NCBI GenBank assembly: GCA_964517975.1
Contig: CAZFDM010000242.1
Location: 143 to 64,142, forward strand
Source: an uncultured Syntrophaceae bacterium
GTDB taxonomy: Bacteria > Desulfobacterota > BSN033 > UBA1163
DNA: 64,000 nucleotides
Reading direction: 5' to 3'
Shown: positions 10,477 to 64,000 of the stretch, one piece after another
How positions within the stretch are numbered: position 1 is the stretch's first letter
How the letters are laid out: every line of letters begins with the position of its first letter
Notes under the pieces: model-generated
Database searches by the model: none
Seen by the model: the letters and a program-made list of their open reading frames with translations, nothing else
Told to the model about the DNA's origin: nothing
Made by a program: the position numbers and the translations under genes

Positions 10477-10664
10477 CGTGGGTAATCTCCTCTTTAAGAT
10501 TTACCTAAGACCGTAAGGGTTTGTTCTAACGGCAACGGTAACGATGCCTGTATCGTCTATATAAAGCTATGGTTATCGTGTTTAATTATTTTAAACATAA
10601 CTGTTACCGAATGACGAAACTGGCTTCGTAACCTTAAACAATAATCCTCTACCAATTTTCATTA

Positions 10665-11111: not shown

Positions 11112-11187
11112 ATATCACCCTCCTCCTACCTTCTACCCTGCCCTTCCGCTTTGCTCAGCTGAGGTATAGGGTATAAATTGGAATGAC

Positions 11188-11556
11188 CTATTTATCCAAA
11201 AGATCATCAGTGGCTATGACGTCAGCACCCGTGTTGAGTAAATTTTTAAAAATGACCTGGCCTCCTTTTATGGGCGGTTTCACCCTCAGATGGGTGAGGG
11301 CTTTTGCCGCCTCCTTCATTTTTGTTTTAAGGATAGGTCTGTTTGACCTTACAGGAAGAAGTGGCCGAGGGGTATTTTCGGTAAGAAGAGTGGTAGTAAA
11401 AACCCTGACTGGGTTTTGGTACTCTTCCATCACAAACTGACGCCCTTCTTTACATCTATAGGCTTCAATTTTAGTGACCCTTCCCCGAGTATCCACATGG
11501 AGAGTAGTCTCACAGCCCATAGGGCAACCCACACAGATAATCTTTTCCTTATTCAT
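11188..11556 (-). CDS. DUF1667 domain protein, partner of GlpA-like oxidoreductases
   Basis: CVGCPMGCE...YRCKEGRQF motif; third gene of the conserved trio. Confidence 0.65.
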   Translation of the reverse strand: MNKEKIICVGCPMGCETTLHVDTRGRVTKIEAYRCKEGRQFVMEEYQNPVRVFTTTLLTENTPRPLLPVRSNRPILKTKMKEAAKALTHLRVKPPIKGGQVIFKNLLNTGADVIATDDLLDK

Positions 11557-45443: not shown

Positions 45444-45592
45444 ATTAACCTCCTATAACTTAAGTCGCGGAATGATGGAATGATGGAACGGTAGGCTAAC
45501 CTTCCCATACCAGATTTCCATTATTCTGATTTTCCATTTCCGTCTTTTTCATAAATCCATTCTTCCAATGTTCCATTATTCCATTCTTCCTC

Positions 45593-47110: not shown

Positions 47111-47176
47111 CAGGATTTAAAAATCAATTTTTAAGGTTCCCCAGTTTTTTAAAAATTCATTTTCAAAAAAATCCCT

Positions 47177-48214
47177 TTAGTTAAGTTTTCCATATTTTTG
47201 GGCAGCCTTTATCAAGGTTTCCATATTTTCCTTTGGTACGACGGGCCAGAGGTCACATCCTGGCCAGATGGCATTGACACCTCCCTCCACTGCCTCTTTC
47301 ACTGCCCTTTCTACATCTTGGGGCTTACCTTGGGTTAACACACCAAAGGGATCGATTTCTCCAAAGATCAATACCTCTGGACCCAATTTTTCCCTACTCT
47401 CGGCCACTCTGTTCTTCTTCTCCACACTGATCGCATCTGCTCCGCATAGGGCCATCTGGTCGATGATTGCATTGGTATCGCCACAGATATGCAGGATCTT
47501 AGGGGATTCGATTTCATCAAAGATTCGTTTCAGATGGGGTCGGACAAGGGACTCAAACATGCGCGGACTCAGAATATCAGGTCCAGCACCCATCTCTCGG
47601 ACAGTGATATAGTCCGCTCCGGCCTTTTTATAAATCTTTACAATTTGAACAAGAACTTCCGCCAGTTGACCAAGTTTTTGACTCACCAACTCCCTCTTTT
47701 TAAAGGCTGATTTCGCAAGGTTTGAAAGATCGACCAACTGTCCTGCCAAGGTATAAGGTCCCAGAACCCAAGAACCAATGACTATCTGATCGCCAACCTC
47801 CTCCTTCAACAAGCGAATCGCTTCTGTGACTATTGGAAGCCTTCCAGCCTTCTCCAAATCAGGTGGGATTTGGATCTCGAGCCCTTCTATTGTCTCTGAA
47901 GGATGCTCCATAATGGTCGGATAGAGGATATCGGATTGGTGGGCATAGTAATTGACTTTACTCCCCAGGACTTCGGCCTCAACACCCATATCGAAGGGAA
48001 CGACTGCACAGGGAAACCCAAACAGTTGATAGGTTGAGGCAGCCATCTTTGCCATCTTTTGGGCATCCATATGAATCTCTGGAAATTTCCACCCATATTT
48101 TTCCAGGCCATGAATGGTAATATTTCCCATGCCACTGAAGAGGGGAATCATATCTAACTTTTCTTTCCCTAAGAGTTTAAGGACCTGCTGTCTTGGACTT
48201 AAATCGGTTGCCAT
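47177..48214 (-). CDS. Uroporphyrinogen-decarboxylase-like methyltransferase (MtaA/CmuA family)
   Basis: URO-D-fold pattern; C-terminal WPGCDLWPVVPKENMETLIKAA zinc-ligand block; start taken at MATDLSPRQQ. Confidence 0.7.
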   Translation of the reverse strand: MATDLSPRQQVLKLLGKEKLDMIPLFSGMGNITIHGLEKYGWKFPEIHMDAQKMAKMAASTYQLFGFPCAVVPFDMGVEAEVLGSKVNYYAHQSDILYPTIMEHPSETIEGLEIQIPPDLEKAGRLPIVTEAIRLLKEEVGDQIVIGSWVLGPYTLAGQLVDLSNLAKSAFKKRELVSQKLGQLAEVLVQIVKIYKKAGADYITVREMGAGPDILSPRMFESLVRPHLKRIFDEIESPKILHICGDTNAIIDQMALCGADAISVEKKNRVAESREKLGPEVLIFGEIDPFGVLTQGKPQDVERAVKEAVEGGVNAIWPGCDLWPVVPKENMETLIKAAQKYGKLN

Positions 48215-48215
48215 G

Positions 48216-49163
48216 TCATCTTTCTCCTTTTTCTTTTTCAAATTGTTTAACCACATCAGGGAAGAGAAGGTTTAACGGGTGATTCTCATGGGGTAAAACC
48301 CCCGCTTCCCCATAAGCTAGGGCGGCCATCATGCTGCTTGCTGCAGCCACGGCTGAAAAAACCCTAGTTGTACCTGTTAAAGGCCCATAGAAAAGGAAAT
48401 CGCTTGCCAGTGCTGAGATGGCATGGACCCCTGCATCGATCGCTGGGAATTTATTTCTCTCCTTCTCACCTGCTGACTTCCTCCACATATAAGTCCCATT
48501 GGAAGGAGCGAATCCAACTGGAAGACCAAATTCCTTTTTGATAAGATAATTAGCCATTAAAGAAAAGGTAGTGGCAGGTAGATTCATCACAGCAGTATCA
48601 ACGAGTATGCTCTCAAAATTCCCTTTCTCCACAAGAGGAAGCAAGGCCTTCAGGGACTTGACCCTACCAGTGGGCGTCTTATCCTCTATATCGAAGACCT
48701 GAACGACCACATGCTTGATGCCAAGTTCTTTGAGTTCAGAGACCTGACCATTAATATCCTCATCCCAGGGGGTAATGCTATTATAAAGAGCCCTGTTTTG
48801 TAACCCTTTCTTTGCAATATAGCGGGCTCCTGCCAGCCTTGTCTTCTGCTGCCAGATATCAATGGCAAAGGGTATCTCCGTAACGCTAACAAAAAAATCG
48901 ATATAATTTTTTATCTCCTCCTCAGAATTGGCCACCAATGCAATTAGACCAGGAATCCCTGTCTGACGAGAAATCTCTTCCAGTTCATGGATTCGTTCTT
49001 CAGCCACCTTTCGGTTAAACTTTCCAGATTTTCTGTCTTCTAAGATGAGATCTCCTTTTTGAAACATATTTCCAATCAAAAGCGGAGGGTTCTCTCCCAA
49101 CTGACCACCCACTTTTGCTCCACCAATATTGAATACCTTTTGCTCCAAAGAATATCTTAACAT
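48216..49163 (-). CDS. MtrH-like pterin-binding methyltransferase (corrinoid:tetrahydrofolate type)
   Basis: 315-aa TIM-barrel-like MtrH/DHPS family resemblance. Confidence 0.55.
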   Translation of the reverse strand: MLRYSLEQKVFNIGGAKVGGQLGENPPLLIGNMFQKGDLILEDRKSGKFNRKVAEERIHELEEISRQTGIPGLIALVANSEEEIKNYIDFFVSVTEIPFAIDIWQQKTRLAGARYIAKKGLQNRALYNSITPWDEDINGQVSELKELGIKHVVVQVFDIEDKTPTGRVKSLKALLPLVEKGNFESILVDTAVMNLPATTFSLMANYLIKKEFGLPVGFAPSNGTYMWRKSAGEKERNKFPAIDAGVHAISALASDFLFYGPLTGTTRVFSAVAAASSMMAALAYGEAGVLPHENHPLNLLFPDVVKQFEKEKGER

Positions 49164-49224: not shown

Positions 49225-52200
49225 TTATTTCTTTTCAGGAAGCAGATGCTCGAGATGTGGAAACTTATCCTTCATATGAGGAATCCACATGGCCTGGGCA
49301 AAAATTTTATCGAATCCTGGCTCCAGGGTGAGTTCTAAATATTCTACCCTCCGTGCAATCCAATCCGCCTCTTTCCTCTTGTCCACATTGAGAAGGGCCA
49401 TACGGGCTCCATCGCCAGCCGCATTTCCTACAGAATAGACATTCTTCGGATCACAGTCAGGGAAAAGCCCTAAAAGTGCGGCTGATGTCTTATCAATATA
49501 ACTTCCAAATGCCCCTGCTAAGATGACTTTGTCTATCTTTTCTACACCCAGAGCCCGCATCATAATCTTGGCCCCTGCATACATGGCTCCTTTGGCCAGT
49601 TGAATCGCCCTGATATCATCCTGACATATCACAATATCCTGCCCAATCGATGTTTCGTTGGCCCAGGCAATGACAAATTCGGGTTGACCATTGACCTCAC
49701 GATATCGAGGAGTGTTAAGATTCTTATTAAAACGGCCCGTCTTATCGATAATCCCTGCAAGGAAAAGTTGAGGGACGATATCAATAATCCCTGAACCACA
49801 GATGCCTTTCGCGCCCACCTCTTCTAATTCTGTATTCCACCCCTCCTTATCGATCACCTTGAAGCGGACTTCTTTGGTCTCAGGATCGATCTCAATCTTC
49901 TCAATCGCCCCAGGAGCAGCCCGCATACCGAATCTAATCTCCGCTCCCTCAAAGGCAGGACCTGTGGCACAGGAAGAGGAGATAAGTTTTTGTCTATTCC
50001 CAAGGACAAGTTCTCCATTGGTGCCGATGTCAATGATCAATTCAATGCTATCCTGGTTGTAAGGTTCCTCAGCAATCAGGACCCCCACATTGTCTGCTCC
50101 GACAAAACCTGCCTCAATGGGAAGCACATGGACATAGGCCCCTGGTGCAATTTTAATCCCAATATCCCTTGATATCTTTGCCTCTGGCCTTCCCTTCTCA
50201 GCATAAACACTGCAGTTAAGACATCTCTTTGATTCTTCGATGGCAATCTCCACCCGATCGGCAAACCCCAATTCGACTTCCTCAAAACCCGTTCTTTTTT
50301 CAGGCTCAATAAGAAATAGGGGTTTACGCTCCTCTTTTTCAATTCCCTCCTTTGGAACGTCTTCAATCTTCTTCTTCTTGGCAGGCCTCCCTTTGACCAG
50401 ATCCACTCCTGAGAGATAGAGTTCAATTGAGATGGCCCCCTCTTGCCCAGCACTTACAGCAGAAATCACATCGGCTGGACCTAAGACCGCATCCCCTCCA
50501 GCAAATACCCCATCTATATTTGTCTTCAACGTAATTGGATCTACTAAAATAGTCCCAGATTTCGTGTACTGAAGTTCATTGACAAACATCCTTTGGTCTA
50601 TAGCCTGACCTACAGCAATGATGAGTTGGTCCACATCGATATGAAAATCTGACCCTTGGATGGGGATAGGAGTGGGTCGACCACTTTCATCGGGCTCTCC
50701 AAGTTCCATCCGGATACATTGAATCCCGTTGAGTTTCCCATCATTGGCCAGGGCCATGATCGGAGATGCCAGGAAATGAAACTTCACCCCTTCCTTTTCA
50801 GCCTCTGAAATCTCGGTTCTGATGGCAGGCATCTCATTTTGGGAACGACGATAGATAATCAAAACTTCCTCTGCTCCAAGACGTCTGGCCACTCGGGCAG
50901 CGTCGATGGCAGCGTTACCGCCACCCACTACAGCCACCCTTCTACCCACCTCAACCTTCTCCCCAGAATTTACCTTTTTCAAAAATTCAAGCCCATGGAT
51001 CACTCCTTTTGACTCTTCATTGGGAATACCCATCCTCTGGCTCTTCCAAGCGCCGGTTGCTAAAAAGATTGCCTTATATCCCTGATCGAAAACCTCTTTG
51101 AGGCTTTGCACAGGATGATTGGTCTTTATCTCCACACCCAACTCTTCTATGTAACCAATCTCCTCGTCCAGAACCTCCTTCGGAAGCCTGTAGTCGGGGA
51201 TGCCATACCGAAGCATTCCTCCAGGCTTAGGAGCGGACTCAAAGACTGTAACAGGATAGCCCCTTCTCACGAGTTCATAGGCGCAGGAGAGCCCTGCTGG
51301 TCCTGAACCGATAATGGCAATTCTTTCTTCCTTCGTCTTCTCAATGGGCGCTGCCCTCTTTCTACCATTTCTTAATTCATGGTCTGCTACAAACCGATGA
51401 AGTGCTCGAATGGAAAGAGGCTGATCTACCTTTCCTCTCTCGCATTCAACCTCGCATGGATGAGTGCAGACACGACCGCATACTCCAGGGAAAGGCATTG
51501 CCCTTCTAATCTCTTCAAGGGCTTCCTCAAACTTTCCCTGAGCAATGTAATATAAAAAGTCTTGGCCACTGATTCCTGCAGGGCAGGCGACTTGACAGGG
51601 GGGGTATCCTCCAATTTCAACCGTTACTGCTTCAGGAAGTAGTTTGAGTCCCCAATCACGGGCTTTAATATCTAAGGAATGATGGAGTGAGGGGGCGAAA
51701 GGTGCACGTCCAATATTTCGAGGATCGATGTTGAGAAAGAGATGGTGCATACAGGTATTGCCAACAATGGTCATATCCAGAATGTCTGTCCTTTTTATTC
51801 CCGCAATAGCAGTGGCCTCCTCAACAATTCCATTCAACCCATCCAGAATGGCCTGGTTCATATGCTCAAGACCATCAGGGTTTGTCATGGTATAACTGAT
51901 TCGGGACATTACATCCTCGCCATAAATGACTTGAGGATTCATCATGGAGGCAGTAGCTACCAACTTCCCATTGGTGAGATCGCAGAGATAACCGGCAACT
52001 GTTGTCGTTCCTACATCCACAGCCAAACCAAAAGCCCTTTTAACATTCCCAGGTTCAACTTTGATCACCTCTCGGTCATGCCAGACAGAAACCGTAACCT
52101 TCCAATCGCCTTGACGCACAACCTCCTGGAGGGTGACCAAAACCTGATAGTCGATGGTTAGGTTTTTCAGTCCATATTGCTTTTCAAGTTCTGTCGTCAA

Positions 52201-52674
52201 ACGTTCCCAATCTCCCCTTGTATCTTCTAAGGTTGCCTTTGGTAATTCTACATAATATTTTTTGACTGCAGGTTTGAGTTCGATATTAATCTCTTTGGCT
52301 GCCTTTCGAACCACCTGTTTTCCCATTCGGCTCTCTTCAGGGACAAAGACGATGATATCATCCAAGATCTGAGCCTGACAGGCTAATCGGTAGCCCCCGC
52401 GTTCTTGCTGAAGGCTGAAAAATTTTCTCTCTGTTTGGCTCATGGGAGAGAGGTGATCGAGACTTGATTCCACCCCATACTTTTCAAAGATTCCCTGCTC
52501 TACCCTCACCTTACACTTCCCACAGATGGCCTTCTCACCACATATCCCCTCAATATCCACTCCAAGTGCAATCGAAGCCTCTTTAAGGGTCTTCCCCTTA
52601 GGGATAAAACCTCTTCGACCTGAAGGTTGAAAGATGACCATGCATTTTTCAGAGGTCTCTTTCTTGCCTGCCAT
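49225..52674 (-). CDS. Reductive activator of corrinoid proteins (RACo-like: 2Fe-2S ferredoxin plus ASKHA/DUF4445) with an inserted GltD-like NAD(P)H/FAD/Fe-S oxidoreductase module
   Basis: N-terminal plant-type ferredoxin (CGEKAICGKCKV). ASKHA start LAVDVGTTTVAGYL. Inserted CPAGISGQD...CGRVCTHPCEVEC, IIGSGPAGLSCAYEL and VAVVGGGNAAIDAA Rossmann motifs. ASKHA resumes at IDIGTNGELVLGN...ICGSGIIDIV. Single 1149-aa ORF with no internal stops. Confidence 0.7.
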   Translation of the reverse strand: MAGKKETSEKCMVIFQPSGRRGFIPKGKTLKEASIALGVDIEGICGEKAICGKCKVRVEQGIFEKYGVESSLDHLSPMSQTERKFFSLQQERGGYRLACQAQILDDIIVFVPEESRMGKQVVRKAAKEINIELKPAVKKYYVELPKATLEDTRGDWERLTTELEKQYGLKNLTIDYQVLVTLQEVVRQGDWKVTVSVWHDREVIKVEPGNVKRAFGLAVDVGTTTVAGYLCDLTNGKLVATASMMNPQVIYGEDVMSRISYTMTNPDGLEHMNQAILDGLNGIVEEATAIAGIKRTDILDMTIVGNTCMHHLFLNIDPRNIGRAPFAPSLHHSLDIKARDWGLKLLPEAVTVEIGGYPPCQVACPAGISGQDFLYYIAQGKFEEALEEIRRAMPFPGVCGRVCTHPCEVECERGKVDQPLSIRALHRFVADHELRNGRKRAAPIEKTKEERIAIIGSGPAGLSCAYELVRRGYPVTVFESAPKPGGMLRYGIPDYRLPKEVLDEEIGYIEELGVEIKTNHPVQSLKEVFDQGYKAIFLATGAWKSQRMGIPNEESKGVIHGLEFLKKVNSGEKVEVGRRVAVVGGGNAAIDAARVARRLGAEEVLIIYRRSQNEMPAIRTEISEAEKEGVKFHFLASPIMALANDGKLNGIQCIRMELGEPDESGRPTPIPIQGSDFHIDVDQLIIAVGQAIDQRMFVNELQYTKSGTILVDPITLKTNIDGVFAGGDAVLGPADVISAVSAGQEGAISIELYLSGVDLVKGRPAKKKKIEDVPKEGIEKEERKPLFLIEPEKRTGFEEVELGFADRVEIAIEESKRCLNCSVYAEKGRPEAKISRDIGIKIAPGAYVHVLPIEAGFVGADNVGVLIAEEPYNQDSIELIIDIGTNGELVLGNRQKLISSSCATGPAFEGAEIRFGMRAAPGAIEKIEIDPETKEVRFKVIDKEGWNTELEEVGAKGICGSGIIDIVPQLFLAGIIDKTGRFNKNLNTPRYREVNGQPEFVIAWANETSIGQDIVICQDDIRAIQLAKGAMYAGAKIMMRALGVEKIDKVILAGAFGSYIDKTSAALLGLFPDCDPKNVYSVGNAAGDGARMALLNVDKRKEADWIARRVEYLELTLEPGFDKIFAQAMWIPHMKDKFPHLEHLLPEKK

Positions 52675-53714: not shown

Positions 53715-54395
53715 TTATTTTTTCATCTCTTCTTCTTTTAGCATTTTTAAAAGTCTTATTGCTTCATCTACTGCAGTGCCTGCATTTTTGGCATATCCGT
53801 CTGCACCATATTTTTCTGCAATCTCGGGATTGAGAGGAGCCCCTCCCAACATGATCCTGACCTTTGGATTCTTAGCCCTTAACTTCTTTATAACCTCTGG
53901 CATGGAAAGCATACTGGTTGTCATCAATGCTGATATTCCAACGATATCGGAGTCTGTCCTAATCTGCTCCTCCACAAATTTATCTAAAGGAACATCTTTC
54001 CCCAAATCGTATACATTCCATCCTGCAACCTCAAACATCATCTTCACTAAGTTCTTCCCAATGTCGTGCACATCGCCCTCTACCACACCAAGGACAATCG
54101 AACCTTTGACCTCTGACTTTCTACCCGAGGCCTCAATGGCTGGTTTTAAAATATCTAAACCCGCATAGAGGGCATCTGCACACATCAGAAGTTCTGGAAC
54201 AAAATACTCTTTATTATTATACTTCTCCCCTGCCTCCATCATCCCCTCAGCCAGACCTTCCATTGTGGCCACAAATGGGTCTACACCCTCTTCCAACGCA
54301 ATCTTGGCCCACTTCTTAGCCTCCTCCTCTTCGAAATAGGCCACTGCATCATGTAACCCCTTAAGAATCTCCTTCGTCCTTTCTTCGGTTGCCAT
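53715..54395 (-). CDS. Corrinoid (B12-binding) protein of a methyltransferase system
   Basis: B12-binding DxHxxG motif (EGDVHDIGKN), 4-helix cap plus Rossmann; start taken at MATEERTKEIL. Confidence 0.85.
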   Translation of the reverse strand: MATEERTKEILKGLHDAVAYFEEEEAKKWAKIALEEGVDPFVATMEGLAEGMMEAGEKYNNKEYFVPELLMCADALYAGLDILKPAIEASGRKSEVKGSIVLGVVEGDVHDIGKNLVKMMFEVAGWNVYDLGKDVPLDKFVEEQIRTDSDIVGISALMTTSMLSMPEVIKKLRAKNPKVRIMLGGAPLNPEIAEKYGADGYAKNAGTAVDEAIRLLKMLKEEEMKK

Positions 54396-54436
54396 AAAGT
54401 TACTCCTCCTATCTCTGGATTGTAAACTTGATAGAA

Positions 54437-54763
54437 TCAAATGACAAAATCTCGAGCTGCTTTAATCATGGCCCTCATGTTCTCCGCCGGAGTCATCCCA
54501 GGAATGTTTCAACCGCCACGAAGAAGAAGACATCCATCCTTCCCTGCTTTCTGCAAGGTCTCTTTGGATTTTTCTTCAACCTCCTTGGGTTCACCCATTG
54601 CTAATAAGGTTGTATCAATATTTCCCATCAAACAAAATTTTGGCCCTAATATCTTTCTGGCCTCTTCAAAATCAACCTTACTGTCGAGACTTAAACCATC
54701 CACCCCTGTTTGAGCCATCAATTCAAGTCGGTCAGTAATATTTCCACCCTCAACACTCTCCAA
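54437..54763 (-). pseudogene. C-terminal remnant of an MtaA/URO-D-family methyltransferase paralog with in-frame TGA at the zinc-ligand Cys position
   Basis: Reads ...GPKFCLMGNIDT...KDGCLLLRGG-[TGA]-NIPGMTPAENMRAMIKAARDFVI, cf. WPGCDLWPVVPKENMETLIKAA in 47177..48214. A stop lies immediately upstream of the first codon, so about 250 aa of N-terminus are missing. Confidence 0.5.
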
Positions 54764-54875
54764 CTATTCAAAAAACTCTTATTATCTTCAATCTGTTGGA
54801 TATCCATCATTTCATACGACATATCAATTTGTCAAGAGGCCATCACGAGAGTTCTGAAAAAGCTCATTTTTTTAT

Positions 54876-55175
54876 GGTAGGGTAAGGTTTAAAACCCTTT
54901 GAATGCGGTCATTTATAATTTTAATTTTCTCACAATTTCTTTTAAATAAAATAAGTCTTTTCAGGGAATTAGATGTTATTGCTTAATCTTTATCGGTATT
55001 CGCACGCCCGATACGGACGGCCGGATACCGATAATAACTATATTTGTAGGGTAAGGGCTTGACCCTTACCTAAATTAATCCGTAGGGTAAGGGTTTATCC
55101 CTTACCGAGAAGTGGTAAGCCACAAGGACTTACCCTACAAAAAACCAACCCATAAAGGATTACCCTACAAATTTT
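54876..55175. repeat. Dense cluster of a 12-bp GTAGGGTAAGGG motif in both orientations, plus nested palindromes
   Basis: Direct copies at 54876, 55046, 55082; reverse copies (CCCTTACC, CTTACCCTAC, ATTACCCTAC) at 55058-55175; 9-bp inverted repeat tatcggtat/ataccgata at 54991-55033. Confidence 0.5.
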
Positions 55176-55309
55176 CTTAAAACGATTGTAAGCCAATAAA
55201 AAAGGCCCTATGGGGGTCGCTCATTCCCCCATAAAGTCTTAGAGATATCTTTAACGTGTAACCCTTCAAGGTAAATTCTCAATACGTTAAGGTACTGAGT
55301 ATCCCTAAA

Positions 55310-56764
55310 TTAGGCATGGGCAGAAGAATGGGAGTTGGCTTCAAGAATAAAAGATAGCCCATCCGAGAGTTGGGACATCCTTCCTAAAAACAGGCTACCT
55401 TTTCCAACGAACATCGCCCTCTTTATCTTCCCTTGCCTCATTGCTCGAATTGCATGGCCTATGTATGGCACCGCAGAGGGGATGTGGCCTTGTGTCGGAC
55501 AATATCCTAACATTCCCTTCTCTCTAACCCACTTATCGAGCTCCGTCTTATCAATCTCTTTGTTCATAGCCGCAAGAGAAGCCATGATTTTATAATTGGT
55601 TGCAGGAGTATCTCCAGCGCCAGCGGGAAGAGTAATTTCTGGATTATGTAACTCTGTGGAAAACTTATCAATATCCTTCATCTTCATTCCGAGTCTTTTT
55701 AGAGGTTTCAAAATTAGGGAACTCAGGATGGCTTGTTGAGGTGAACCCGCACCCACATCATGTTTACCTATAGAATCCAGACGAATCCGTGGACTTATAC
55801 CGTCATCCTTCGTAATCAATATGGCCATTCCAGCAAGAATATCCTCCAGAATCGGCATGTTATGTTTCAAATGGGCTGCAGACTTCATGCCTGCCTTAGC
55901 CAGACATCCTCCACCAGCCACGATTACATTTTTAAAGATTCCAGATTCAACTAAGGCCGCTCCATCCATGATTGCGTGATTGGGACCCACGCAGAATGCC
56001 CGAACATCATGACCTGTGGCATTGACACAACCTGCCATCTCAGCATAGGCTTTTGCTAAACTTCCACCTCCTCGATTGTACCTGTCTCCAACAGCAGTCT
56101 CTGTACAATCGAGAACAAATTCTACTTCGGTTGGATCCATATTCGCTAATTTTAAAAGATGTAGGATAGCCAAGACCCCAGAAGCCTTCGCGGTCAAGTT
56201 CTCCAGTAGAACTTGTGCCTTTAATGTATCGTCTCTTTCATGATCGCGTCTAAATGAGCCAATAAGCTTCCCATCATAAAAAATTGGTAGGGCATCTCCT
56301 TTTTCAATAATCTCCGTTATTTTCTCAATCGATTTCCCCTGACCCAGTTTCTTGATCCATGCCTCGCTTACAAAAGGATGAGAGGAAAACTTATCCTTGA
56401 TCTGCTCAATAAATTGAGGTTCCAGCCAGAACAGGTCAAAGTCATCGGCCGCTTTCATCCAACCATAAAATTCATCTTCTGGCATGATCTCCCCAAAGGG
56501 TCCATTCCGCTTTCCTTCTGGAAGCAGATGTTCATACCAGGGCTTGGGCACATTGTACAAAACCTCTGGCTCCATATTCCCAATATATACCTGATGGGGA
56601 ACATATCTGAGGGCTTCATCGTAACTCCTTAAATGATTGTATAATTGTTCTTTGACCTGAGGGTTGTCCTCAATATCTCGAGTAGGTTTGGATCCATATT
56701 GAACTAAGTCAGGGACATGGACAATGATATAACTGGCTTCTGGAATTACTACAGACATGATCAA
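55310..56764 (-). CDS. Glycine/betaine/sarcosine reductase component C subunit (GrdC-like)
   Basis: Recalled similarity to GrdC (VYIGN..PE.L...P.PWY, FGEIMP.DEF, FDLFWLE); operon context with grdA and thioredoxin. Confidence 0.55.
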   Translation of the reverse strand: MIMSVVIPEASYIIVHVPDLVQYGSKPTRDIEDNPQVKEQLYNHLRSYDEALRYVPHQVYIGNMEPEVLYNVPKPWYEHLLPEGKRNGPFGEIMPEDEFYGWMKAADDFDLFWLEPQFIEQIKDKFSSHPFVSEAWIKKLGQGKSIEKITEIIEKGDALPIFYDGKLIGSFRRDHERDDTLKAQVLLENLTAKASGVLAILHLLKLANMDPTEVEFVLDCTETAVGDRYNRGGGSLAKAYAEMAGCVNATGHDVRAFCVGPNHAIMDGAALVESGIFKNVIVAGGGCLAKAGMKSAAHLKHNMPILEDILAGMAILITKDDGISPRIRLDSIGKHDVGAGSPQQAILSSLILKPLKRLGMKMKDIDKFSTELHNPEITLPAGAGDTPATNYKIMASLAAMNKEIDKTELDKWVREKGMLGYCPTQGHIPSAVPYIGHAIRAMRQGKIKRAMFVGKGSLFLGRMSQLSDGLSFILEANSHSSAHA

Positions 56765-56782
56765 AAAATCTCCTTTCTCTAT

Positions 56783-57106
56783 TTAATCAACGATCTTCTT
56801 TACCGCCTCTTCAATTTCTTCAATTTTAAGGTTGTTTCCACTCAAACGATCCACCTCTTTCCCACCTTTATAGAGGAGAAATGTAGGTAATCCTAAAACT
56901 TTTAGGGTTAAACAGAGCCGTCTGTTTTTTGAAGCATCGACCTTTGTAATCTTCAATCTTTTTCCAAATTTTTCTTCTAACTTCTCTACCTGAGGTATTA
57001 GGGCCAAACAAGGAGCACATTGAGGCCCCCAAAAATCGACCAAAACAGGAATTTCTGACTCCACGACCTCTTTTTCAAAATTATCTGCATTAACCTCGCT
57101 CACCAT
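56783..57106 (-). CDS. Grd-associated thioredoxin with atypical CAPC active site
   Basis: WGPQCAPC motif; thioredoxin fold; located between grdA and grdC-like. Confidence 0.8.
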   Translation of the reverse strand: MVSEVNADNFEKEVVESEIPVLVDFWGPQCAPCLALIPQVEKLEEKFGKRLKITKVDASKNRRLCLTLKVLGLPTFLLYKGGKEVDRLSGNNLKIEEIEEAVKKIVD

Positions 57107-57255
57107 TGAATCCTCCTCTTTGGTAAAAATATTAACTTCCCTCTGAAAGTTGAATTCAGTGGTCAATAGACCTTTGAAGAGTTTTGATCACCCTATGGAG
57201 ACACTTTCATTGAAAAGTGCTCAAAAACAGCCTATTTCCTTCTAATAAAGGATTT

Positions 57256-57756
57256 TTAAGCATTCGATAAACACTTCTTTCGAAGTGCCTTGAGTTCTTG
57301 ACTTATTTTCTCAATCTTTTCCGGCTCAATTGCCATCGCCCAAATGCCTACTTGTTCTTCATAGACATCCTCAGGGATTGCGTCTCGAACCTCAGGCTCC
57401 AGGATATGATAAACAGGGAGTCCCAACGAGACTCCTGCCAATGGTCCAGAAAAAGAAGGATCTCCAGTAGTCACGGTTTCTGCTGTAATCATCACTCCAT
57501 CCAGATCGCTTGCACCAAGGACTACAATGATATCATCCTTAGGGATATTATCCTTTTGGGCTCTTTCCGCAATACTCTTCACCTGACCTTGATTTTCTGG
57601 ATCCATTGTTCCTGCAGCCGTTCAGACAAAACACTCTGTTACCTTAAAGGCGACATTGGCACCTGCTGCTTCAAGACATGTAGCAATGGCAGGACCTTGA
57701 ACTCCATCCCGCTCACCAATGATGATGGCTGTTTTGCCTTTGAGCCAATTATCCAT
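57256..57756 (-). CDS. grdA: Glycine reductase complex selenoprotein A (GrdA), Sec at TGA 57622-57624
   Basis: Hand translation upstream of the ORF-track start gives [56 protein letters not shown], the canonical CFVUTAAG motif. C-terminal half matches GrdA ([26 protein letters not shown]). GGGAGG RBS. Confidence 0.85.
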
Positions 57757-57797
57757 ATCTTCACACCTCCCTTTCTTCTACTTCTTAAATTTATTTT

Positions 57798-59765
57798 CTA
57801 AACTAACAACCTAAATTTTGTATGAGGAAAAGAAGACATCTTCAGGAATATTAATAACGCAATGAAGACAATAATGGCCCCTACAGTAGCTTGCCATTTG
57901 GGATACAATAATAGGACCCCAATGGCAAAAACTAAAATTCTCTGGTAAATTGACAATCTCCCGTAGAAAAAAAGCCATCCTTCCATCGATGATCCCAAAA
58001 AGACAGCACCTGGGATGGCTGTAATCACTGCTAATACGACATCCCATAATGGCCCTATCATAATTAAAGCAGGATTGATAGCGAAGAAGAAAGGTACGAT
58101 ATATTTGGCTGACCCCAACTTCATCGATTGATATCCTGTAGCCATTGGATTTCCTCCAGCAATGGCTGCAGCTGTAATTGATCCCAAGGCCACAGGTGGA
58201 GTGATGTAGGAAAGAGCACCCCAATAGAGTACAAATAGATGACAGGCCATTGGATTCAATCCTATTTTAACGAGAGCAGGAACCATGACAATTGCCAAAA
58301 AGACATAACATGCAGTGACAGTCATCCCCATCCCTAAGATAAAACTGGTGAGGGCTCCTAAGAAGAGGAGAAGTAGATAATTATCTCCCGCTAAGATGAC
58401 AAGCTCTCTTGAGAAGGAGTTGGCCACACCAGTCCCAGAAAGGGATCCAACGATCAAACCGACCCCTGCCAAAATGGCAGTTATCTGGGCCATGAGTTTG
58501 CCTGATTCGAAAAGGAAGTCCACTATTTTCCTCCAAGTAAGCCGTGTACTCTTACGGATCATAGCACAGCCAAAGAGGAATACCATGGTGTAGAAGGGGG
58601 CCCACGATTCCATCCTCACATAGAAGAGGATAAAGGTTAATAGGATAATTGAGCCGAAAAAGAACCATCCCTCTTTTAATGTCTTCCAGAAATTGGGTAA
58701 ATCTTTTCTTGGTAATCCTACCAAATTTGATTTGGCTGCATAGGCATCTACCTGGGTATAAAGAGTGATATAGTAAAGAACAGCAGGAAAGAATGCTGAG
58801 AGGATTACCTTAGAATATGGTACAGCTAAAAATGAAGCGATCAAGAACCCCGCCGCTCCCATAATGGGTGGTGTAATCGTCCCTCCTGTAGAAGCACAGG
58901 CTTCCACCGCACCAGCAAAGTTTGGGGTATAGCCTGTCTTCTTCATTGCAGGGATGGTGACCGAACCGGTAGTGACAACATTGGAAATCACACTTCCACT
59001 GAGCATGGCCATAAAAGCGCTCGATAGGACTGCGACCTTTGCTGCCCCTCCTCTGGTATGGCCTAAAACCGAGAGGGCGAAGTCCATGAAGAATTTACCT
59101 CCCCCAGAGGTCACAAGGGCTACACCAAAAATGATGAAACCTGCCAACAGTTCACCTACGACTTTAGTCGGAATACCAATGATACTCTCTACCCCCATTG
59201 CATGGTAACGGGCGGCCTGCGAAAAGGTAAAGGGATTTCCCCAAAATAATCCAGGAAGAAACTCACCATAAAGAGGATAAAAAGAAAAGATGGCACAGAT
59301 GACGAAAAGAATATTTCCTCCTGCTCGTCTGACCCCCTCGAGCGCAATAAACCATAAGATAAAACTCGCGACGGTTGGAATCAGGGGTGCTTGGAACTCC
59401 CATCCTTTTGTTAAGATGTCGTAGGCATGAAAGGCAAGGTAAAGATTAGTCATTACACAGAGGATAAAGAGTAACCAATCGTACCAAATTACCCGACCTT
59501 TGCTTTTTTCAGTTGAAGGATAAAGAAGAAAGGTCAAGGATAAGAAGGTGGCTAATAGATAGTAAAAGTAGGCAGTCCCGATAGGCATAAAACCTGCTAA
59601 TTGCAAATGAAATAGTTGGTTGATAATAATGATTAGTCCAATCCCGGATAAGGCTACACAAATAGTATAGATAAAGGTTCCTACTCGGGATTTTTCATCT
59701 ATTATTTTCCTCTCTTGGGGAAGGGCCAAATTTTCATGCATATCAGGTTTTCTCCTAATAAACAA
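57798..59765 (-). CDS. TRAP transporter fused permease (TAXI-associated)
   Basis: 655-aa polytopic membrane protein adjacent to the TAXI receptor gene. Confidence 0.8.
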   Translation of the reverse strand: MFIRRKPDMHENLALPQERKIIDEKSRVGTFIYTICVALSGIGLIIIINQLFHLQLAGFMPIGTAYFYYLLATFLSLTFLLYPSTEKSKGRVIWYDWLLFILCVMTNLYLAFHAYDILTKGWEFQAPLIPTVASFILWFIALEGVRRAGGNILFVICAIFSFYPLYGEFLPGLFWGNPFTFSQAARYHAMGVESIIGIPTKVVGELLAGFIIFGVALVTSGGGKFFMDFALSVLGHTRGGAAKVAVLSSAFMAMLSGSVISNVVTTGSVTIPAMKKTGYTPNFAGAVEACASTGGTITPPIMGAAGFLIASFLAVPYSKVILSAFFPAVLYYITLYTQVDAYAAKSNLVGLPRKDLPNFWKTLKEGWFFFGSIILLTFILFYVRMESWAPFYTMVFLFGCAMIRKSTRLTWRKIVDFLFESGKLMAQITAILAGVGLIVGSLSGTGVANSFSRELVILAGDNYLLLLFLGALTSFILGMGMTVTACYVFLAIVMVPALVKIGLNPMACHLFVLYWGALSYITPPVALGSITAAAIAGGNPMATGYQSMKLGSAKYIVPFFFAINPALIMIGPLWDVVLAVITAIPGAVFLGSSMEGWLFFYGRLSIYQRILVFAIGVLLLYPKWQATVGAIIVFIALLIFLKMSSFPHTKFRLLV

Positions 59766-59825
59766 GAGGTGGGTCCCCTCTTTATTTTGAAGGGGACCCT
59801 ATCATTTAATTTTTCATCTCACTGA

Positions 59826-60980
59826 CTAATCCTGTGGGACCTCTTCCCTTATTTTCATCCATAGGGCTTCAAAATCTTTTGATTCCAATTTTTGAGCCCT
59901 TCCCATGGCAATAGCCTTTGCCCATGCCTTTTCTAAATTCTTTATACGTTTTACATACTTATCGTTCCAGGCCTGGTATTCTGGGGTCCATATCCCTTTC
60001 TCTTTAAAATATTTTATTGCTCCTTCATGAAAAGGGGCATCGACAGGTGGTACTCCAGCCTGGTCGATACGCCACCAAGGCATGGTTGGGTGCGCTTTTT
60101 CATAGAGTGGGAAGGTTTCATCCAAAGCCTTTGTTAAATTATAGACATAATCAAAAGAGGTATCTGCATAGACCGTTCCGATAGGATATCGGTATTGAAC
60201 CAGTTGGGCTGGATTATCCTTTGAGAGTCCTGCCCCAACTGTTTCTGTGAAAGGTTTTAAATAGGGTGCTATTTTCAACATTCTCTTCCAACCCTCTTTG
60301 TCCTCAGGAGGAAAGGGGGGATAATGAACACCTTTTGGAGTACTTGCCAATTCATAAATAAGACTTGCAGTGGTCGTCCCGCAGATCGCATCGACTTGTC
60401 CAGCGATCAAACCCTTTGCAGTGGCGGCATAACTTGGAAATTCTACCTTCTTCACATCATCCCAAGTCAGATTGGCAAAAGCCAGATAAGCCTCCATCTT
60501 TACATTTAGAGATGGATTTCCAGGAATCCAAGAAACCCTTTTCCCCTTGAGGTCTCTTAATGTTTTAATCCCACTTTCTTTGGTGGTAATAACAGCGTGG
60601 GCAGTGGGAAGGGCGAGTATAACTCTCAGATCTTGGGGACCCCATTCGTAAGTAGCGAAGTCATAAACCCCCTCGGCGGCAAAGTGTGCTTCTGTGGCTA
60701 ACCATGCCACCTCAACCCTTTTTGTTTTTAGGGGCATGATTCTTCCAATTGAGGTTCCTGAAGGCATCAACCGAACCCTGATTCCATACTTCTTAAGCAA
60801 GGCATCAGCCATTGCCGAGGCATGAACGTAACCAGTGGAACCTACATCATAGCAACTCCACAAGAGAGTTTCTGGGAGTTTGACTGAGCTCACGGTCTGG
60901 GCCGAACCATTGATACTTAGAAATACAAGAGCAAAGATTAGGATAATAAAGATTAAACATTTTTTAATTATAAACCTCAT
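59826..60980 (-). CDS. TAXI-family TRAP transporter solute receptor
   Basis: Signal peptide plus periplasmic binding fold, 384 aa. Confidence 0.75.
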   Translation of the reverse strand: MRFIIKKCLIFIILIFALVFLSINGSAQTVSSVKLPETLLWSCYDVGSTGYVHASAMADALLKKYGIRVRLMPSGTSIGRIMPLKTKRVEVAWLATEAHFAAEGVYDFATYEWGPQDLRVILALPTAHAVITTKESGIKTLRDLKGKRVSWIPGNPSLNVKMEAYLAFANLTWDDVKKVEFPSYAATAKGLIAGQVDAICGTTTASLIYELASTPKGVHYPPFPPEDKEGWKRMLKIAPYLKPFTETVGAGLSKDNPAQLVQYRYPIGTVYADTSFDYVYNLTKALDETFPLYEKAHPTMPWWRIDQAGVPPVDAPFHEGAIKYFKEKGIWTPEYQAWNDKYVKRIKNLEKAWAKAIAMGRAQKLESKDFEALWMKIREEVPQD

Positions 60981-61134
60981 ATGACCCTCCTTTCAGATAA
61001 TATTTGGTTTTTCATCCAAAATTATGAAAAATTAAATCACCTCCTTTCTCATAAAGTTGAAGATCCCATTTCTTTAATTAAGTGATGGATAAAGATTACT
61101 GCATTCCTTCTAAGGTAAAGATGGTTGGTCTACT

Positions 61135-62460
61135 TACCTCTGTTTGGAGTATTTCTAAAGCCCGCAATACATACTTTCGGCGCAAGGCCTTTTCTTGATC
61201 TTTAGTTAAAACGGAATTTCCAACCACGCAGGTAATACTTTGCCCCTGCAAGATTCGATTAACTCCAACCATTTGGGCTACATTCGGAACTGCAGTAATT
61301 TGAACAACAGGGATACCTCTCTTCTCAATTCTTGATGCGATCGTTGCACCGCAACGAGTGCTGGAGCCTCAGGTTGAGGTGAGAATAACAGCATTAATTC
61401 CTCCCCGCCTCTTGATCTCCTCTCCCATCTCCTCCCCCATTTCAGCACATCTTCTCGAGATGGTGGCATTGCCGGAGGTAGAGAAAAACGATGGATGGAG
61501 TTTTCCGATCTTCCCCTCTTTCATAAGTTCACGCATCACATCTACTGGAACCAGTCGATTTGGATCTCTCAAGACATGCACTGGGAAATAACCTGTATGG
61601 GCGATCTCGTAATTAGAGGAGTCGTAATTCTCTGGGAGAAAAGTATCTATATCATAAATAGCCCAACGGAGATTTCCCCTCCCACTCAATCCATGAGGGT
61701 TCCCTCTGGGGACCAATCCCCCATCACTAATCAGGACAATTTCACAGGTGCGAAGATCCTTGAGGGGTGGAGGAGGCTCCACTCTTTCAAACTTTGGAAG
61801 AATGACCTCGCTCTCAAAGGGGTCTCCCTTAATCTTGGCCAGTAGCTTATCGACACTTCTTCGGGCAGCTGTTTTATCCGTATACTCATTTCTAAGAAGG
61901 TATCGAGTAAAATAATGAAATTCCTCAGGTTTCGGGAGATTCTCCCTGGAGACCAGATAAACTCCTTTCTCTCCAGATATTAGTTGAAAGGCAAGTTTAA
62001 CCATTCGCTCTATGCTGATTGCCATATCCCTTGCGCTGTTTCCAGTCTTACAGATATAGGCATATTTTCGATACATCTCCACGCCAGGATTTTCTTCATG
62101 CATCCCTGTAATCGCTGGGATGCCAAGTTTTTCACCGACTATCTTACAAATCGCGCCACAGGCCACTCCATACCTTCCCGCTGCAAAGGCTGGGCCTGCA
62201 AAAAAGAGGTCAGGTTGATAGGGCTCAATCAATTTCAGGCCTTCTTCTGAAACGAGTTCAGGATTTTTTGAAAAGGTGTTATCCCCGCAGATGAGCGTCG
62301 CTATTACATTGGCTTTATCCCCCAATACTTTTTGTAAAACAGCCCCAGGACCTATTGGGCCTGCCATTACTATAAAACCAATATCTGCTTTTTCCTCACC
62401 CCCCACTTGACCAAAAAATTGATTTAGGTAATGGACCACTTTCAATTTTTTTTGTACCAT
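61135..62460 (-). CDS. grdB: Glycine/sarcosine/betaine reductase component B beta-type selenoprotein (GrdB/GrdF/GrdH family), Sec at TGA 61369-61371
   Basis: MVQKKLKVVHYLNQFFGQ N-terminus. ORF-track stop after ...GINAVILTST is followed in frame by U-GSSTRCGATIASRIEKRGIPVV...ALEILQTR, cf. GrdB ILTSTUGTCTRCGAT. cgttgc-acc-gcaacg hairpin 12 nt after the UGA. Confidence 0.85.
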
Positions 62461-62485
62461 CTAAACCCTCCAATAGAGCTTCGCC

Positions 62486-63778
62486 CTAATATTCTTTCAC
62501 AATGATATTGGCTCCTCCAAGGTGATCATGCACTCCAGCGATTAAAAATTGTTCAACATCAATGACAGGGTCACCAGCATGTTGCTCAATGGGATCTGGA
62601 CAATAGATTTTCGTATCGGCGGTCCCTCCTAAAAATCTCACTGCGTCTAAAGGAACCTTAATCCTTTCCATGGTGGCTCCAACAGTAATAATCAGGTCCA
62701 CTGCTTCTGTGTTGAAGAGTAAGGTTTCTGCAAGTGTTCCATAACTAATCAAGGGCTGGATAAAGATGGCAGTTTTGACTCCAAGCTTCTCACACTCTTC
62801 TGCCACCATTGCCAAATCAACATGGGGCAATCCTCCATGAATTTTTGTGAGAACCACACCATCTGCACCTAATACATTTTTTATCAGATTAGAAGCCATT
62901 ACTGCCTGCCTTTTTCTGGGGATGGGCTCCATATTGGCCACTCCACACACAACCCCAGCAAAGATCAGATCTTTGCCATGCCGGCTGTAAAGTTCTTTAA
63001 TAACTCCATGGTTTTGGATCGTATAAGTGTCGAGGGCTCGAATGGTATGAGCCCCAACTACCCCTCCATCCAAGACCTCATTGGGATGAAGAATGGTGGG
63101 TGTCAGGTTTCGGACATCTGATCCATAAAAACAGGGATCAGATACTCCGAGATGATCGTGCTGAGGGCTATAAAGTTGGTAGTAATAAGCGATTCGGGGA
63201 AGGTCCGATTTTGTAAAGAGTTTTGGGATATCCAACTCATATATCTCCACTTCATCCACTGGATGTCCTTCTGCACATCGGGCAAGATAGACCGCTGTCT
63301 TTAAACCCGCGATCTTTACAGCATCTTCAAAATCGCGATCCTCTATATCTTCTGAAATAGTTGGGGAGATGTGGACATGGTGCATCTTTCCATATCGACT
63401 TATTTCTGGAATAAGACCCGACATATCCAGAAGGGCCGAGTATTTCCGATTCGTAAATGGATTCGAAACCAGCACGCTGACTCCTCGTAAGGACCTGGTA
63501 CGTCCACTCCCGGCAACTTGCAATCTGCCAATGAAACCCGGAAAGTCCGCCTCGACCTTATCGATCTTACAACGAGGTTGAACCACATCCATGAGATTGA
63601 CAATACGCACCCTTTCCCCAGGATGAATTAGATTGATATCAACCGATTTAATTCGCCTATCCTGGAGGAGAATTTCTTTTAACTCTTTAAGATGGACGTA
63701 TAAAACTCTATCCTTTGCGTAGGTCTTAGACCCTGGATGGACATCTTTAATATCAATCGATTCAATCTCAAGTCTCAT
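62486..63778 (-). CDS. grdE: Glycine/sarcosine/betaine reductase component B alpha-type proprotein (GrdE/GrdG/GrdI family)
   Basis: MRLEIESIDIKDVHPGSKTYAKDRVLYVHLKEL N-terminus typical of GrdE-type proproteins; directly upstream of grdB. Confidence 0.7.
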   Translation of the reverse strand: MRLEIESIDIKDVHPGSKTYAKDRVLYVHLKELKEILLQDRRIKSVDINLIHPGERVRIVNLMDVVQPRCKIDKVEADFPGFIGRLQVAGSGRTRSLRGVSVLVSNPFTNRKYSALLDMSGLIPEISRYGKMHHVHISPTISEDIEDRDFEDAVKIAGLKTAVYLARCAEGHPVDEVEIYELDIPKLFTKSDLPRIAYYYQLYSPQHDHLGVSDPCFYGSDVRNLTPTILHPNEVLDGGVVGAHTIRALDTYTIQNHGVIKELYSRHGKDLIFAGVVCGVANMEPIPRKRQAVMASNLIKNVLGADGVVLTKIHGGLPHVDLAMVAEECEKLGVKTAIFIQPLISYGTLAETLLFNTEAVDLIITVGATMERIKVPLDAVRFLGGTADTKIYCPDPIEQHAGDPVIDVEQFLIAGVHDHLGGANIIVKEY

Positions 63779-63885: not shown

Positions 63886-64000
63886 TTATGAAGAGCCTCC
63901 CATGATAAAGGGAGATTCCATCTTTAAAAGGGCATCAGAGATCTCCCTTCCGGTTTGGATGAGGATGGGAGCTATATTTTTCTCCAACTCACTCCGGCTA
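63886..64000 (-). CDS. 3' end of an unidentified gene running off the window edge
   Basis: Open frame ...ELEKNIAPILIQTGREISDALLKMESPFIMGGSS ending at TAA 63886-63888. Confidence 0.3.
   Translation of the reverse strand, partial: SRSELEKNIAPILIQTGREISDALLKMESPFIMGGSS

Follow-up and report, generated by a model that had tools for sequence, protein, structure and literature searches.

A predicted selenocysteine-dependent Grd-type reductive cleavage operon from an uncultured Syntrophaceae bacterium, with a protein B of an uncharacterised Desulfobacterota-wide clade

Grd-type selenoenzymes belong to a small number of soluble systems in which the reductive cleavage of a bond is coupled to substrate-level energy conservation, and to our knowledge only five substrates have been assigned to them so far: glycine, sarcosine, betaine, D-proline and fluoroacetate. 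We describe here an operon of this type in a stretch of 64,000 nucleotides (the window) on contig CAZFDM010000242.1 of an uncultured Syntrophaceae bacterium. We put at roughly 0.7 the probability that this operon, apparently controlled by an IclR-family regulator, encodes a thioredoxin-driven, selenocysteine (Sec)-dependent reductive cleavage system whose substrate-specific protein B belongs to an uncharacterised clade distributed throughout the Desulfobacterota. What is new lies within a known type of system: a protein B clade that is unassigned and non-pyruvoyl, carboxylate importers that are modular, and a protein C that lacks GrdD.

The closest described systems are the glycine reductase GrdBE, the sarcosine reductase GrdFG, the betaine reductase GrdHI of Peptoclostridium acidaminophilum and of Enterococcus gilvus plasmid pCR1A (locus L099), and the fluoroacetate reductase FarACEB of Cloacibacillus porcorum. 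GrdE and GrdG, the alpha subunits of the first two, carry an Asn-Cys self-cleavage site that gives rise to a pyruvoyl group, and a Schiff base on its carbonyl polarises the C-N bond of glycine and sarcosine (PMC10838667). GrdHI combines an uncleaved, pyruvoyl-less alpha with a Sec-containing beta and works with GrdA, a Grd-type thioredoxin and GrdC; its cluster in E. gilvus reads trxB-trx-grdA-grdC-grdD-grdI-grdH-BCCT-GntR. The sarcosine reductase genes of P. acidaminophilum stand as grdX-grdG-grdF. FarACEB is encoded in an operon that also supplies its transporter; its protein B is a paralogous pair in which alpha is not a proprotein, its substrate is an alpha-substituted acetate without an amine, and it delivers to the GrdA and protein C machinery that these systems have in common (PMC10838667). 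GrdA and GrdB of Syntrophus aciditrophicus and Desulfuromonas acetoxidans were already on record in 2006 (PMC1794560), and a study of 2026 analysed the glycine reductase complex across the Desulfobacterota (PMC12827605); the latter cites Sanchez-Andrea et al. 2020, on autotrophic Desulfovibrio desulfuricans, for a role in the reductive glycine pathway. An earlier reading of the window made from its letters (the sequence-only reading) had placed the locus outside the classical clostridial context, which is right in that the host is one of the Desulfobacterota but does not amount to a novelty, Grd genes having been known in Deltaproteobacteria since 2006 (PMC1794560). Our search of the searchable literature returned no description of the clade, nor of a linkage of Grd genes to TAXI or Tct transporters.

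The features of the operon, in the order of transcription and with lengths in amino acids (aa), are as follows.

63886 to 63999, minus strand: 3' end of an IclR-family regulator gene (37 codons and the stop), cut by the end of the window; translation SRSELEKNIAPILIQTGREISDALLKMESPFIMGGSS, then the stop
62486 to 63778, minus strand: alpha subunit of a substrate-specific protein B (GrdE/GrdI-like, 430 aa; PF09338, 288 bits)
61096 to 62460, minus strand: beta subunit, selenoprotein B-like, 454 aa, with Sec at codon 364 (read-through translation; PF07355, 403 bits; TIGR01918, 441 bits)
61340 to 61361, minus strand: SECIS-like hairpin directly 3' of the beta Sec codon (Rfam RF01990, SECIS_4)
59826 to 60980, minus strand: TAXI-family TRAP solute-binding protein, 384 aa (TIGR02122, 198 bits; cut-off 84)
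57798 to 59765, minus strand: fused TRAP permease of DctQM type, 655 aa (TIGR02123, 601 bits; cut-off 321; PF06808, 320 bits)
57256 to 57756, minus strand: selenoprotein A, GrdA, 166 aa, with Sec at codon 45 (NF040748, 189 bits; cut-off 130)
56783 to 57166, minus strand: Grd-type thioredoxin with active site WGPQ-CAPC (PF00085, 83 bits)
55310 to 56764, minus strand: GrdC, the protein C beta subunit, about 482 aa, of 'solo' type (NF040746, 665 bits; cut-off 450)
55195 to 55240, minus strand: terminator-like hairpin and T-run at the operon end (inverted repeat I8 with 15-nt arms, then TTTTTTATT)

From the list of open reading frames (ORFs) and the translation of the window, all seven reductase and transporter genes are located on the minus strand between 55310 and 63778, with 18-115 bp separating neighbours. 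The gene identities and the operon structure on this strand had been proposed in the sequence-only reading, and models and coordinates bear both out; its remark that the ORF list splits the two Sec genes is also correct, the pieces being 363 and 58 aa for the beta gene and 44 and 116 aa for grdA.

The in-frame TGA of the beta gene lies at 61369-61371 (context ...AVILTST-U-GSSTRCGAT) and that of grdA at 57622-57624 (context CFV-U-TAAG, with the redox motif C-x-x-U present). Both are kept, with conserved protein sequence on either side, wherever homologous loci were checked (20/20 for beta and 13/13 for grdA), and this conservation supports the assignment of Sec to both genes that had been read from the motifs. 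An Rfam SECIS_4 match lies 8 nt 3' of the beta TGA (29.4 bits, E=0.0056) and folds around a CGTTGC/GCAACG stem; its score is under the gathering score of 38, yet its position is the expected one.

At the level of protein families the protein B pair is confirmed on both sides, as a PF09338 alpha and a Sec-containing PF07355/TIGR01918 beta, the cut-off of TIGR01918 being 65 bits. Membership in the Grd rather than the proline reductase group, as the sequence-only reading had it, also stands, since the PrdA model gives 19.6 bits (cut-off 700) and the PrdB model 71.7 bits (cut-off 300). Among the curated models for the individual reductases, the beta scores 392, 434 and 403 bits on GrdB (TIGR01917), GrdF (NF040794) and GrdH (NF040795), for which the cut-offs are 602, 800 and 775. 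A genuine GrdB, from the Clostridia metagenome-assembled genome (MAG) L013, scores 688, 700 and 576 bits on the same three models, so that a glycine-type GrdB (576 bits on the GrdH model) lies closer to GrdH than the window beta does (403 bits). The best NCBIfam matches of the alpha are GrdG (NF040793, 223 bits, cut-off 780) and FarE (NF053623, 196 bits, cut-off 675).

Pairwise comparison was made with annotated or validated references, namely GrdH/I of E. gilvus pCR1A and GrdF/G of P. acidaminophilum, taken from a plasmid collection, and the GrdB/E pair of L013, whose beta passes the TIGR01917 cut-off. The window beta is 39% identical to GrdH, 44% to GrdF and 43% to GrdB, and the three reference betas are 49-61% identical among themselves; the alpha is 30% identical to GrdI, 33% to GrdG and 30% to GrdE, with 39-56% among the references. 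All clade loci keep the Sec motif ST-U-GSS(T/S)RCG, where the references have ST-U-GTCTRCGATM, so that in the window beta the first Cys of U-xx-C-xx-C is replaced by Ser (U-xx-S-xx-C) and the second is retained; the window beta also carries a 9-residue insertion relative to the GrdH, GrdF and GrdB references. Neither alpha nor beta had a sequence match among solved structures. Judged by the cut-offs of hidden Markov models (for FarBE, that of FarE) and by identity to the references, alpha and beta are placed outside GrdBE, GrdFG, GrdHI and FarBE. The sequence-only reading had left the substrate as a choice among glycine, sarcosine and betaine, to be settled by setting the B subunits against GrdBE, GrdFG and GrdHI; the pair falls outside all three, and with the GrdB, GrdF and GrdH cut-offs missed and an alpha only 30-33% identical to the references, that choice was probably a false trichotomy.

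The alpha subunit differs from GrdE and GrdG at the site where these are cleaved. The canonical sequence ...DGAI(V/T)SGNCV(S/A)(A/P)CDK... (SGNCVSACDK in GrdE, SGNCVAPCDK in GrdG) is aligned with ...DGGVVGAHT------IRALD... in the window, where the loop is deleted and neither Cys is present, and both the deletion and the loss are common to all clade members examined. With the Asn-Cys loop gone, the alpha is by its sequence not a pyruvoyl proprotein, and the description 'grdE-like proprotein' given in the sequence-only reading is to be dropped. FarE and GrdI likewise have neither of the two cysteines and are not proproteins (PMC10838667). Glycine and sarcosine would be unlikely substrates of such a protein, because the pyruvoyl-forming site needed for Schiff-base activation is missing.

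This bears directly on the possibility of an ordinary glycine or sarcosine reductase that serves amino-acid fermentation or the reductive glycine pathway. Source annotations do name clade members "glycine reductase" or "sarcosine reductase", the GrdA, GrdC and thioredoxin can be counted as canonical, and PMC12827605 cites a glycine-reductase route for D. desulfuricans. Against these points, the pyruvoyl Cys pair and loop, needed for primary and secondary amines (PMC10838667), are absent from every clade member examined; the TIGR01917, GrdF and GrdG cut-offs are missed by wide margins; no GrdD is found in the window or at loci with clade-type GrdC; and a dedicated importer and an IclR regulator suit CO2 fixation poorly. 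We regard this explanation as improbable.

Homologues of the alpha make up over 120 protein clusters (68-100% identity), every one of metagenome or MAG origin, and 78 loci with an alpha of at least 65% identity were collected, mostly from Syntrophaceae and Desulfobacterales MAGs; a metagenome scan added 76 loci. Matches in the genome collection come from Syntrophaceae, Syntrophobacterales, Desulfobacteraceae, Desulfobacula and unclassified "delta proteobacterium" MAGs. The clade is abundant in sediment, wetland and digester metagenomes, and is carried by sulfate reducers and syntrophs. In the PF09338/GrdE alpha family as a whole, an exhaustive search gives 949 clusters at 50% identity (E<=0.001), and in a sample of 115 family sequences the SGNC..C pyruvoyl site is kept only by a small clade; most of the diversity of the family is unassigned and probably not amine-activating. 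A neighbour-joining tree places the window clade inside a large loop-deleted, Cys-less supergroup, with GrdE and GrdG together and apart from it; GrdI groups elsewhere as well, with P0207 (71% identical to annotated GrdI), adjoining the canonical clade. On these comparisons the window alpha and beta define a distinct, conserved clade that is widespread in the Desulfobacterota.

We note that the Clostridia contig L013 carries, beside its canonical grdE-grdB-trxB-trx-grdA-grdC-grdD operon, a second, orphan alpha/beta pair at 9992-12640 that has the loop deletion and the U-xx-S-xx-C motif of the window clade, at 39% and 46% identity. The non-pyruvoyl supergroup thus occurs in Bacillota too, alongside a classical protein C.

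The relation to betaine reductase has to be weighed separately. The alpha of the window is uncleaved and pyruvoyl-less like GrdI, and the GrdHI cluster also contains a dedicated importer and a regulator. A divergent GrdHI-type enzyme could cleave glycine betaine, or a related onium compound, brought in by the TAXI-TRAP system, and the corrinoid methyltransferase genes that adjoin the window operon would in principle be able to handle methylated products. The evidence makes this unlikely. The beta stays far below the GrdH cut-off and even below the score of a true GrdB on that model, the two identities to the E. gilvus pair are only 39% and 30%, GrdI keeps the loop that is deleted here, and the window beta has U-xx-S-xx-C where GrdH has U-xx-C-xx-C, and an insertion besides. 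Known betaine clusters carry BCCT, in contrast to the TAXI-TRAP, Tct, MFS or ABC importers of the window clade; neither BCCT- nor MttB-like families were among those recurring in at least 3 of the 78 loci, although neither was specifically searched for. GrdHI is accompanied by GrdCD and occurs in Bacillota, whereas the Desulfobacterota locus has no GrdD and a shortened GrdC. The methyltransferase neighbourhood, finally, is not conserved among relatives, and a repeat cluster and a truncated gene lie between it and the operon. We therefore hold to the reading of a separate clade, which probably acts on something other than glycine, sarcosine or betaine.

Alphas that are not proproteins and act with substrates incapable of forming a Schiff base have precedents in GrdI and FarE (PMC10838667). 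FarACEB differs from the window system in that FarB is reported to be without the whole CxxC (PMC10838667), where the window beta keeps the second Cys, FarB having been compared by description only, and in that the window operon has neither a radical-SAM FarC nor an oxalate/formate-type MFS FarA. GrdBE and GrdFG share with it the fold families PF09338 and PF07355, the position of Sec, and the dependence on GrdA, thioredoxin and GrdC; they differ in the self-cleavage site, in the identities and curated cut-offs given above, in the presence of GrdD, and in grdX, for which no ORF stands upstream of the window alpha.

The second half of the system, by which the reducing power would be delivered and the product released, would follow the known one up to its last step. 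The thioredoxin scores 126.6 bits on the clostridial Grd-type TrxA model (cut-off 140), and CAPC is present in 19/28 clade thioredoxins; its true start is probably an ATG about 60 nt into the ORF, because the homologues are 107 aa long. GrdC is found without GrdD. A GrdD query (tblastn) returned nothing in the window or at any locus with a clade-type GrdC (63-99% identical to that of the window), and the gene after grdC is never grdD in the 17/17 clade-type GrdC loci with at least 900 bp downstream. trxB was likewise not found by tblastn in the 64 kb window, so that, within it, both genes are absent as the sequence-only reading had stated. The gene grdD occurs only in loci L075 and L080, and the adjacent GrdC there is of the canonical type (47% identity).

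The GrdC proteins themselves differ accordingly in length. All seven GrdD-partnered GrdCs examined (L013, L075, L080, two Enterococcus plasmids, Photobacterium and Acetoanaerobium) have a C-terminal extension of about 27-30 residues, and the seven solo GrdCs aligned with them end directly after ...SF(I/L)(L/V)E(A/T/R)N, without this tail; the 27 clade GrdCs have a median length of 480 aa, and those with a GrdD partner measure 499-513 aa. These observations suggest that a GrdC lineage independent of GrdD really exists. Among solved structures GrdC shows only weak resemblance to KAS III.

The importer is a two-component TAXI-TRAP system, since the TAXI receptor, which has an N-terminal signal-like hydrophobic segment, and the fused DctQM permease both score above curated cut-offs. 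Orthologues of both genes, at 67-91% identity, lie in the same cluster in L004, L007, L009, L023, L024 and L076, and the TAXI orthologues linked to the cluster in other loci are 70-91% identical; in all, TAXI/TRAP orthologues are linked to the cluster in at least nine loci, and their identities track those of alpha and beta. The window order IclR-alpha-beta-TAXI-TRAP-grdA-trx-grdC recurs in L023 (99% identity) and L024 (88%). In relatives the genes usually run IclR, grdA, alpha, beta, trx, grdC, and transporter genes, if there are any, come behind grdC; TAXI, TRAP permease and trxB follow grdC in L004, L007, L009 and L076, with trxB 3' of the TRAP genes in L007 and L009. In many other loci TctCBA and an MFS gene follow IclR, alpha and beta; a further Tct set often lies upstream, and in these Tct-type loci grdA, trx and grdC are often elsewhere; TctCBA, MFS or ABC importers thus occupy the transporter position of other loci. 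Among the 78 loci IclR is counted in 47, Trx in 28, GrdC and GrdA in 27 each, TctA in 19, MFS in 13 and TRAP in 10.

The sequence-only reading had taken the embedding of the TRAP genes between grdB and grdA as a link to the reductase and had proposed a compositional break as the sign of a recent insertion; the recurrence of orthologous or substitute importers upholds the link, and no break is present. An unrelated insertion that splits the grd operon, and would say nothing about the substrate, could point to the fact that most relatives have grdA-alpha-beta-trx-grdC with the transporter after grdC or absent, which makes the window order a rearrangement. However, the GC content at third codon positions (GC3) is 0.397 for TAXI and 0.431 for TRAP, compared with 0.399, 0.409 and 0.404 for alpha, beta and GrdC, and their overall GC is likewise indistinguishable from that of the flanking grd genes; the interrupted order is kept in L024 despite a divergence to 88% identity; and different importers stand at the same position in other loci. 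Since identities track, GC3 matches and the order recurs, the transporter is taken to be part of the system, and we give the insertion very little credence. We read the cluster as two modules, one substrate-specific, with regulator, protein B and an exchangeable importer, and one generic, with grdA, trx and grdC.

Which substrate this would be is indicated in general terms by the importer and the regulator. The translation SRSELEKNIAPILIQTGREISDALLKMESPFIMGGSS at the window end corresponds to the C-terminal end of the IclR protein encoded upstream of alpha in L001-L004 and further loci; the copy in L004, which is complete, reaches 235.7 bits with the PcaR/PcaU/PobR model, under its cut-off of 284.75. 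The importer families and an IclR regulator nearest to PcaR/PcaU/PobR together suggest an anionic carboxylate. Solved TAXI receptors (9oz4, 8s4j, 1us4) belong to the same family by curated cut-offs but are distant in sequence (best E=1e-12), and their ligands are not transferable. Clustering of the neighbours of the 78 loci brought up no catabolic enzyme that recurs and could identify the substrate; the recurring candidates are an acyl-CoA ligase in 7 loci (by eye), an MmgE/PrpD-like protein in 5 (by eye; no NCBIfam model matched) and an SDR in 4, with a Liv-type ABC system 3' of the MmgE/PrpD-like or SDR genes in L003, L012 and L038.

A working of the system can be proposed that follows the established Grd mechanism as far as the parts allow. 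The TAXI receptor and fused TRAP permease would import the substrate, as their conserved linkage indicates, and alpha and beta would bind it; by homology to GrdB, GrdH and FarB, Sec364 of beta would attack the carbon next to the carboxylate and expel the leaving group. With no pyruvoyl on alpha the substrate probably needs no Schiff-base activation, which speaks against glycine and sarcosine and in favour of a compound whose alpha substituent is in itself a good leaving group, and the transporter types and PcaR-like regulator would make it a net anionic carboxylate. Candidate classes include onium compounds, alpha-halo, alpha-sulfo, aryloxy or acyloxy acids, and tertiary aminopolycarboxylates. 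The carboxymethyl or carboxyalkyl group would pass to Sec45 of GrdA, whose Cys-x-x-Sec pair would release an acyl thioester onto GrdC and itself become oxidised, to be re-reduced by the CAPC thioredoxin. Because GrdD is absent and this GrdC lineage is without the tail of the GrdD-partnered GrdCs, release of the acyl group as acetyl phosphate by GrdCD is improbable; the group may go, speculatively, to coenzyme A (CoA), to water or to an unlinked phosphotransacylase.

A bolder version is that the clade is a reductase for a non-amine (or tertiary or quaternary onium) anionic carboxylate such as haloacetate, sulfoacetate, an aryloxy- or acyloxy-acetate or an aminopolycarboxylate, in which a GrdD-independent GrdC delivers the acyl group in a form other than acetyl phosphate, for example as CoA ester, and which may serve sulfate reducers and syntrophs for energy or carbon. 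We hold this version to be tentative. If it were true, Grd-type selenoenzymes would gain a new substrate class and a new terminal step, both widespread in freshwater and wetland sediments. Identification of the substrate would establish one more anaerobic sink for a carboxylate in sediments, and an explanation of the action of GrdC in the absence of GrdD would change the textbook Grd mechanism in its final step. Copies of the clade bring their own regulator and importer, and either can be used in ligand screens.

Several points weigh against the readings that we prefer. The tree is a neighbour-joining tree of 115 of the 949 clusters and carries no support values, and FarE entered the comparison through its NCBIfam model only. 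In L075 (alpha 69%) a canonical grdCD stands next to alpha/beta, so that this protein B clade can work with a classical protein C; the absence of GrdD covers flanks of up to 10 kb and the 64 kb window, and grdD could sit elsewhere in the genomes, as grdA, trx and grdC do in several clade loci (L003, L016, L017). The substrate class is drawn only from the loss of the pyruvoyl site and from the families to which the transporters and the regulator belong, and as betaine reductase also has no pyruvoyl group, a divergent substrate of betaine (onium) type is compatible with them.

A scan for consensus promoters and terminators gave counts at background and did not call the hairpin after grdC, which was recognised only by eye and by the inverted-repeat search. 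The position of grdX, a gap of 107 bp upstream of alpha, holds no ORF; grdX was not searched for elsewhere in the window. The sequence-only reading had cited sigma-54 usage as context, but upstream of alpha no convincing sigma-54 (-24/-12) promoter was detectable, and in the window such patterns are no more frequent than in shuffled sequence. An ORF at 36426-37763 on the minus strand, by eye a PAS-domain sigma-54-dependent activator located 25 kb from the grd operon, was probably the source of that remark.

Between the grd terminator and an MtaA gene remnant lies, at 54871-55179, a cluster of GTAGGGTAAG(G)-type palindromic repeats, with 4 matches versus 0.07 expected and several nested inverted repeats. 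The near-identical metagenome contigs L001 and L002 break off no more than a few hundred bases past grdC, which would fit a multi-copy element at which assemblies fail. The remnant, at 54441-54763 on the minus strand, is the 3' part (about 107 codons) of an MtaA/CmuA-family methyltransferase gene of which the N-terminal 250 codons or so are missing. An in-frame TGA in the remnant falls exactly at the position of the zinc-ligand Cys in the intact paralogue at 47177-48256 (RGG-TGA-NIPG versus WPG-C-DLWP); the remnant may derive from a Sec-containing MtaA, or the match in position may be due to chance.

Beyond this junction, at 44133-49163 and 53715-54440 on the minus strand, is a set of corrinoid methyltransferase genes that comprises an MtaA/CmuA-family methyltransferase, an MtrH/MtgA-like methyl-tetrahydrofolate transferase, a corrinoid protein, a GntR regulator, a GlcD-like FAD oxidase, an HdrD/GlcF-like Fe-S protein and a Liv-type ABC system with Tat signal. 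A functional link of these genes to the grd operon as a conserved feature was considered and rejected, as only a RamA-like gene recurs (L010, L012). The repeat cluster and the truncated MtaA gene separate the operon from the corrinoid block, and since the arrangement is not conserved in relatives and has such a junction, the adjacency is probably accidental.

A sister clade shows another gene company. In L018 (153-11708), with an alpha 59% identical, alpha/beta share an operon with genes for a Liv-type binding protein, a split UxaA/GarD-like dehydratase (98 and 392 aa), an Fe-dependent alcohol dehydrogenase, ABC permeases and ATPases, and a GntR regulator. The split dehydratase presumably resembles SuyAB and, together with the alcohol dehydrogenase, the enzymes of sulfolactate and dihydroxypropanesulfonate (DHPS) metabolism; no curated model confirmed these likenesses, and an organosulfonate substrate was not adopted beyond an idea.

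The corrinoid neighbourhood of the window also includes, at 49225-52674 on the minus strand, a 1149-aa corrinoid reductive activase of RamA/AcsV type. It contains an insertion of about 480 aa (residues ~351-830) that resembles the glutamate-synthase small subunit, an NAD(P)H flavoprotein; the RamA-like proteins encoded beside the grd cluster in L010 and L012, of 517-521 aa, are without it. Such a fusion could make the activase self-sufficient for electrons.

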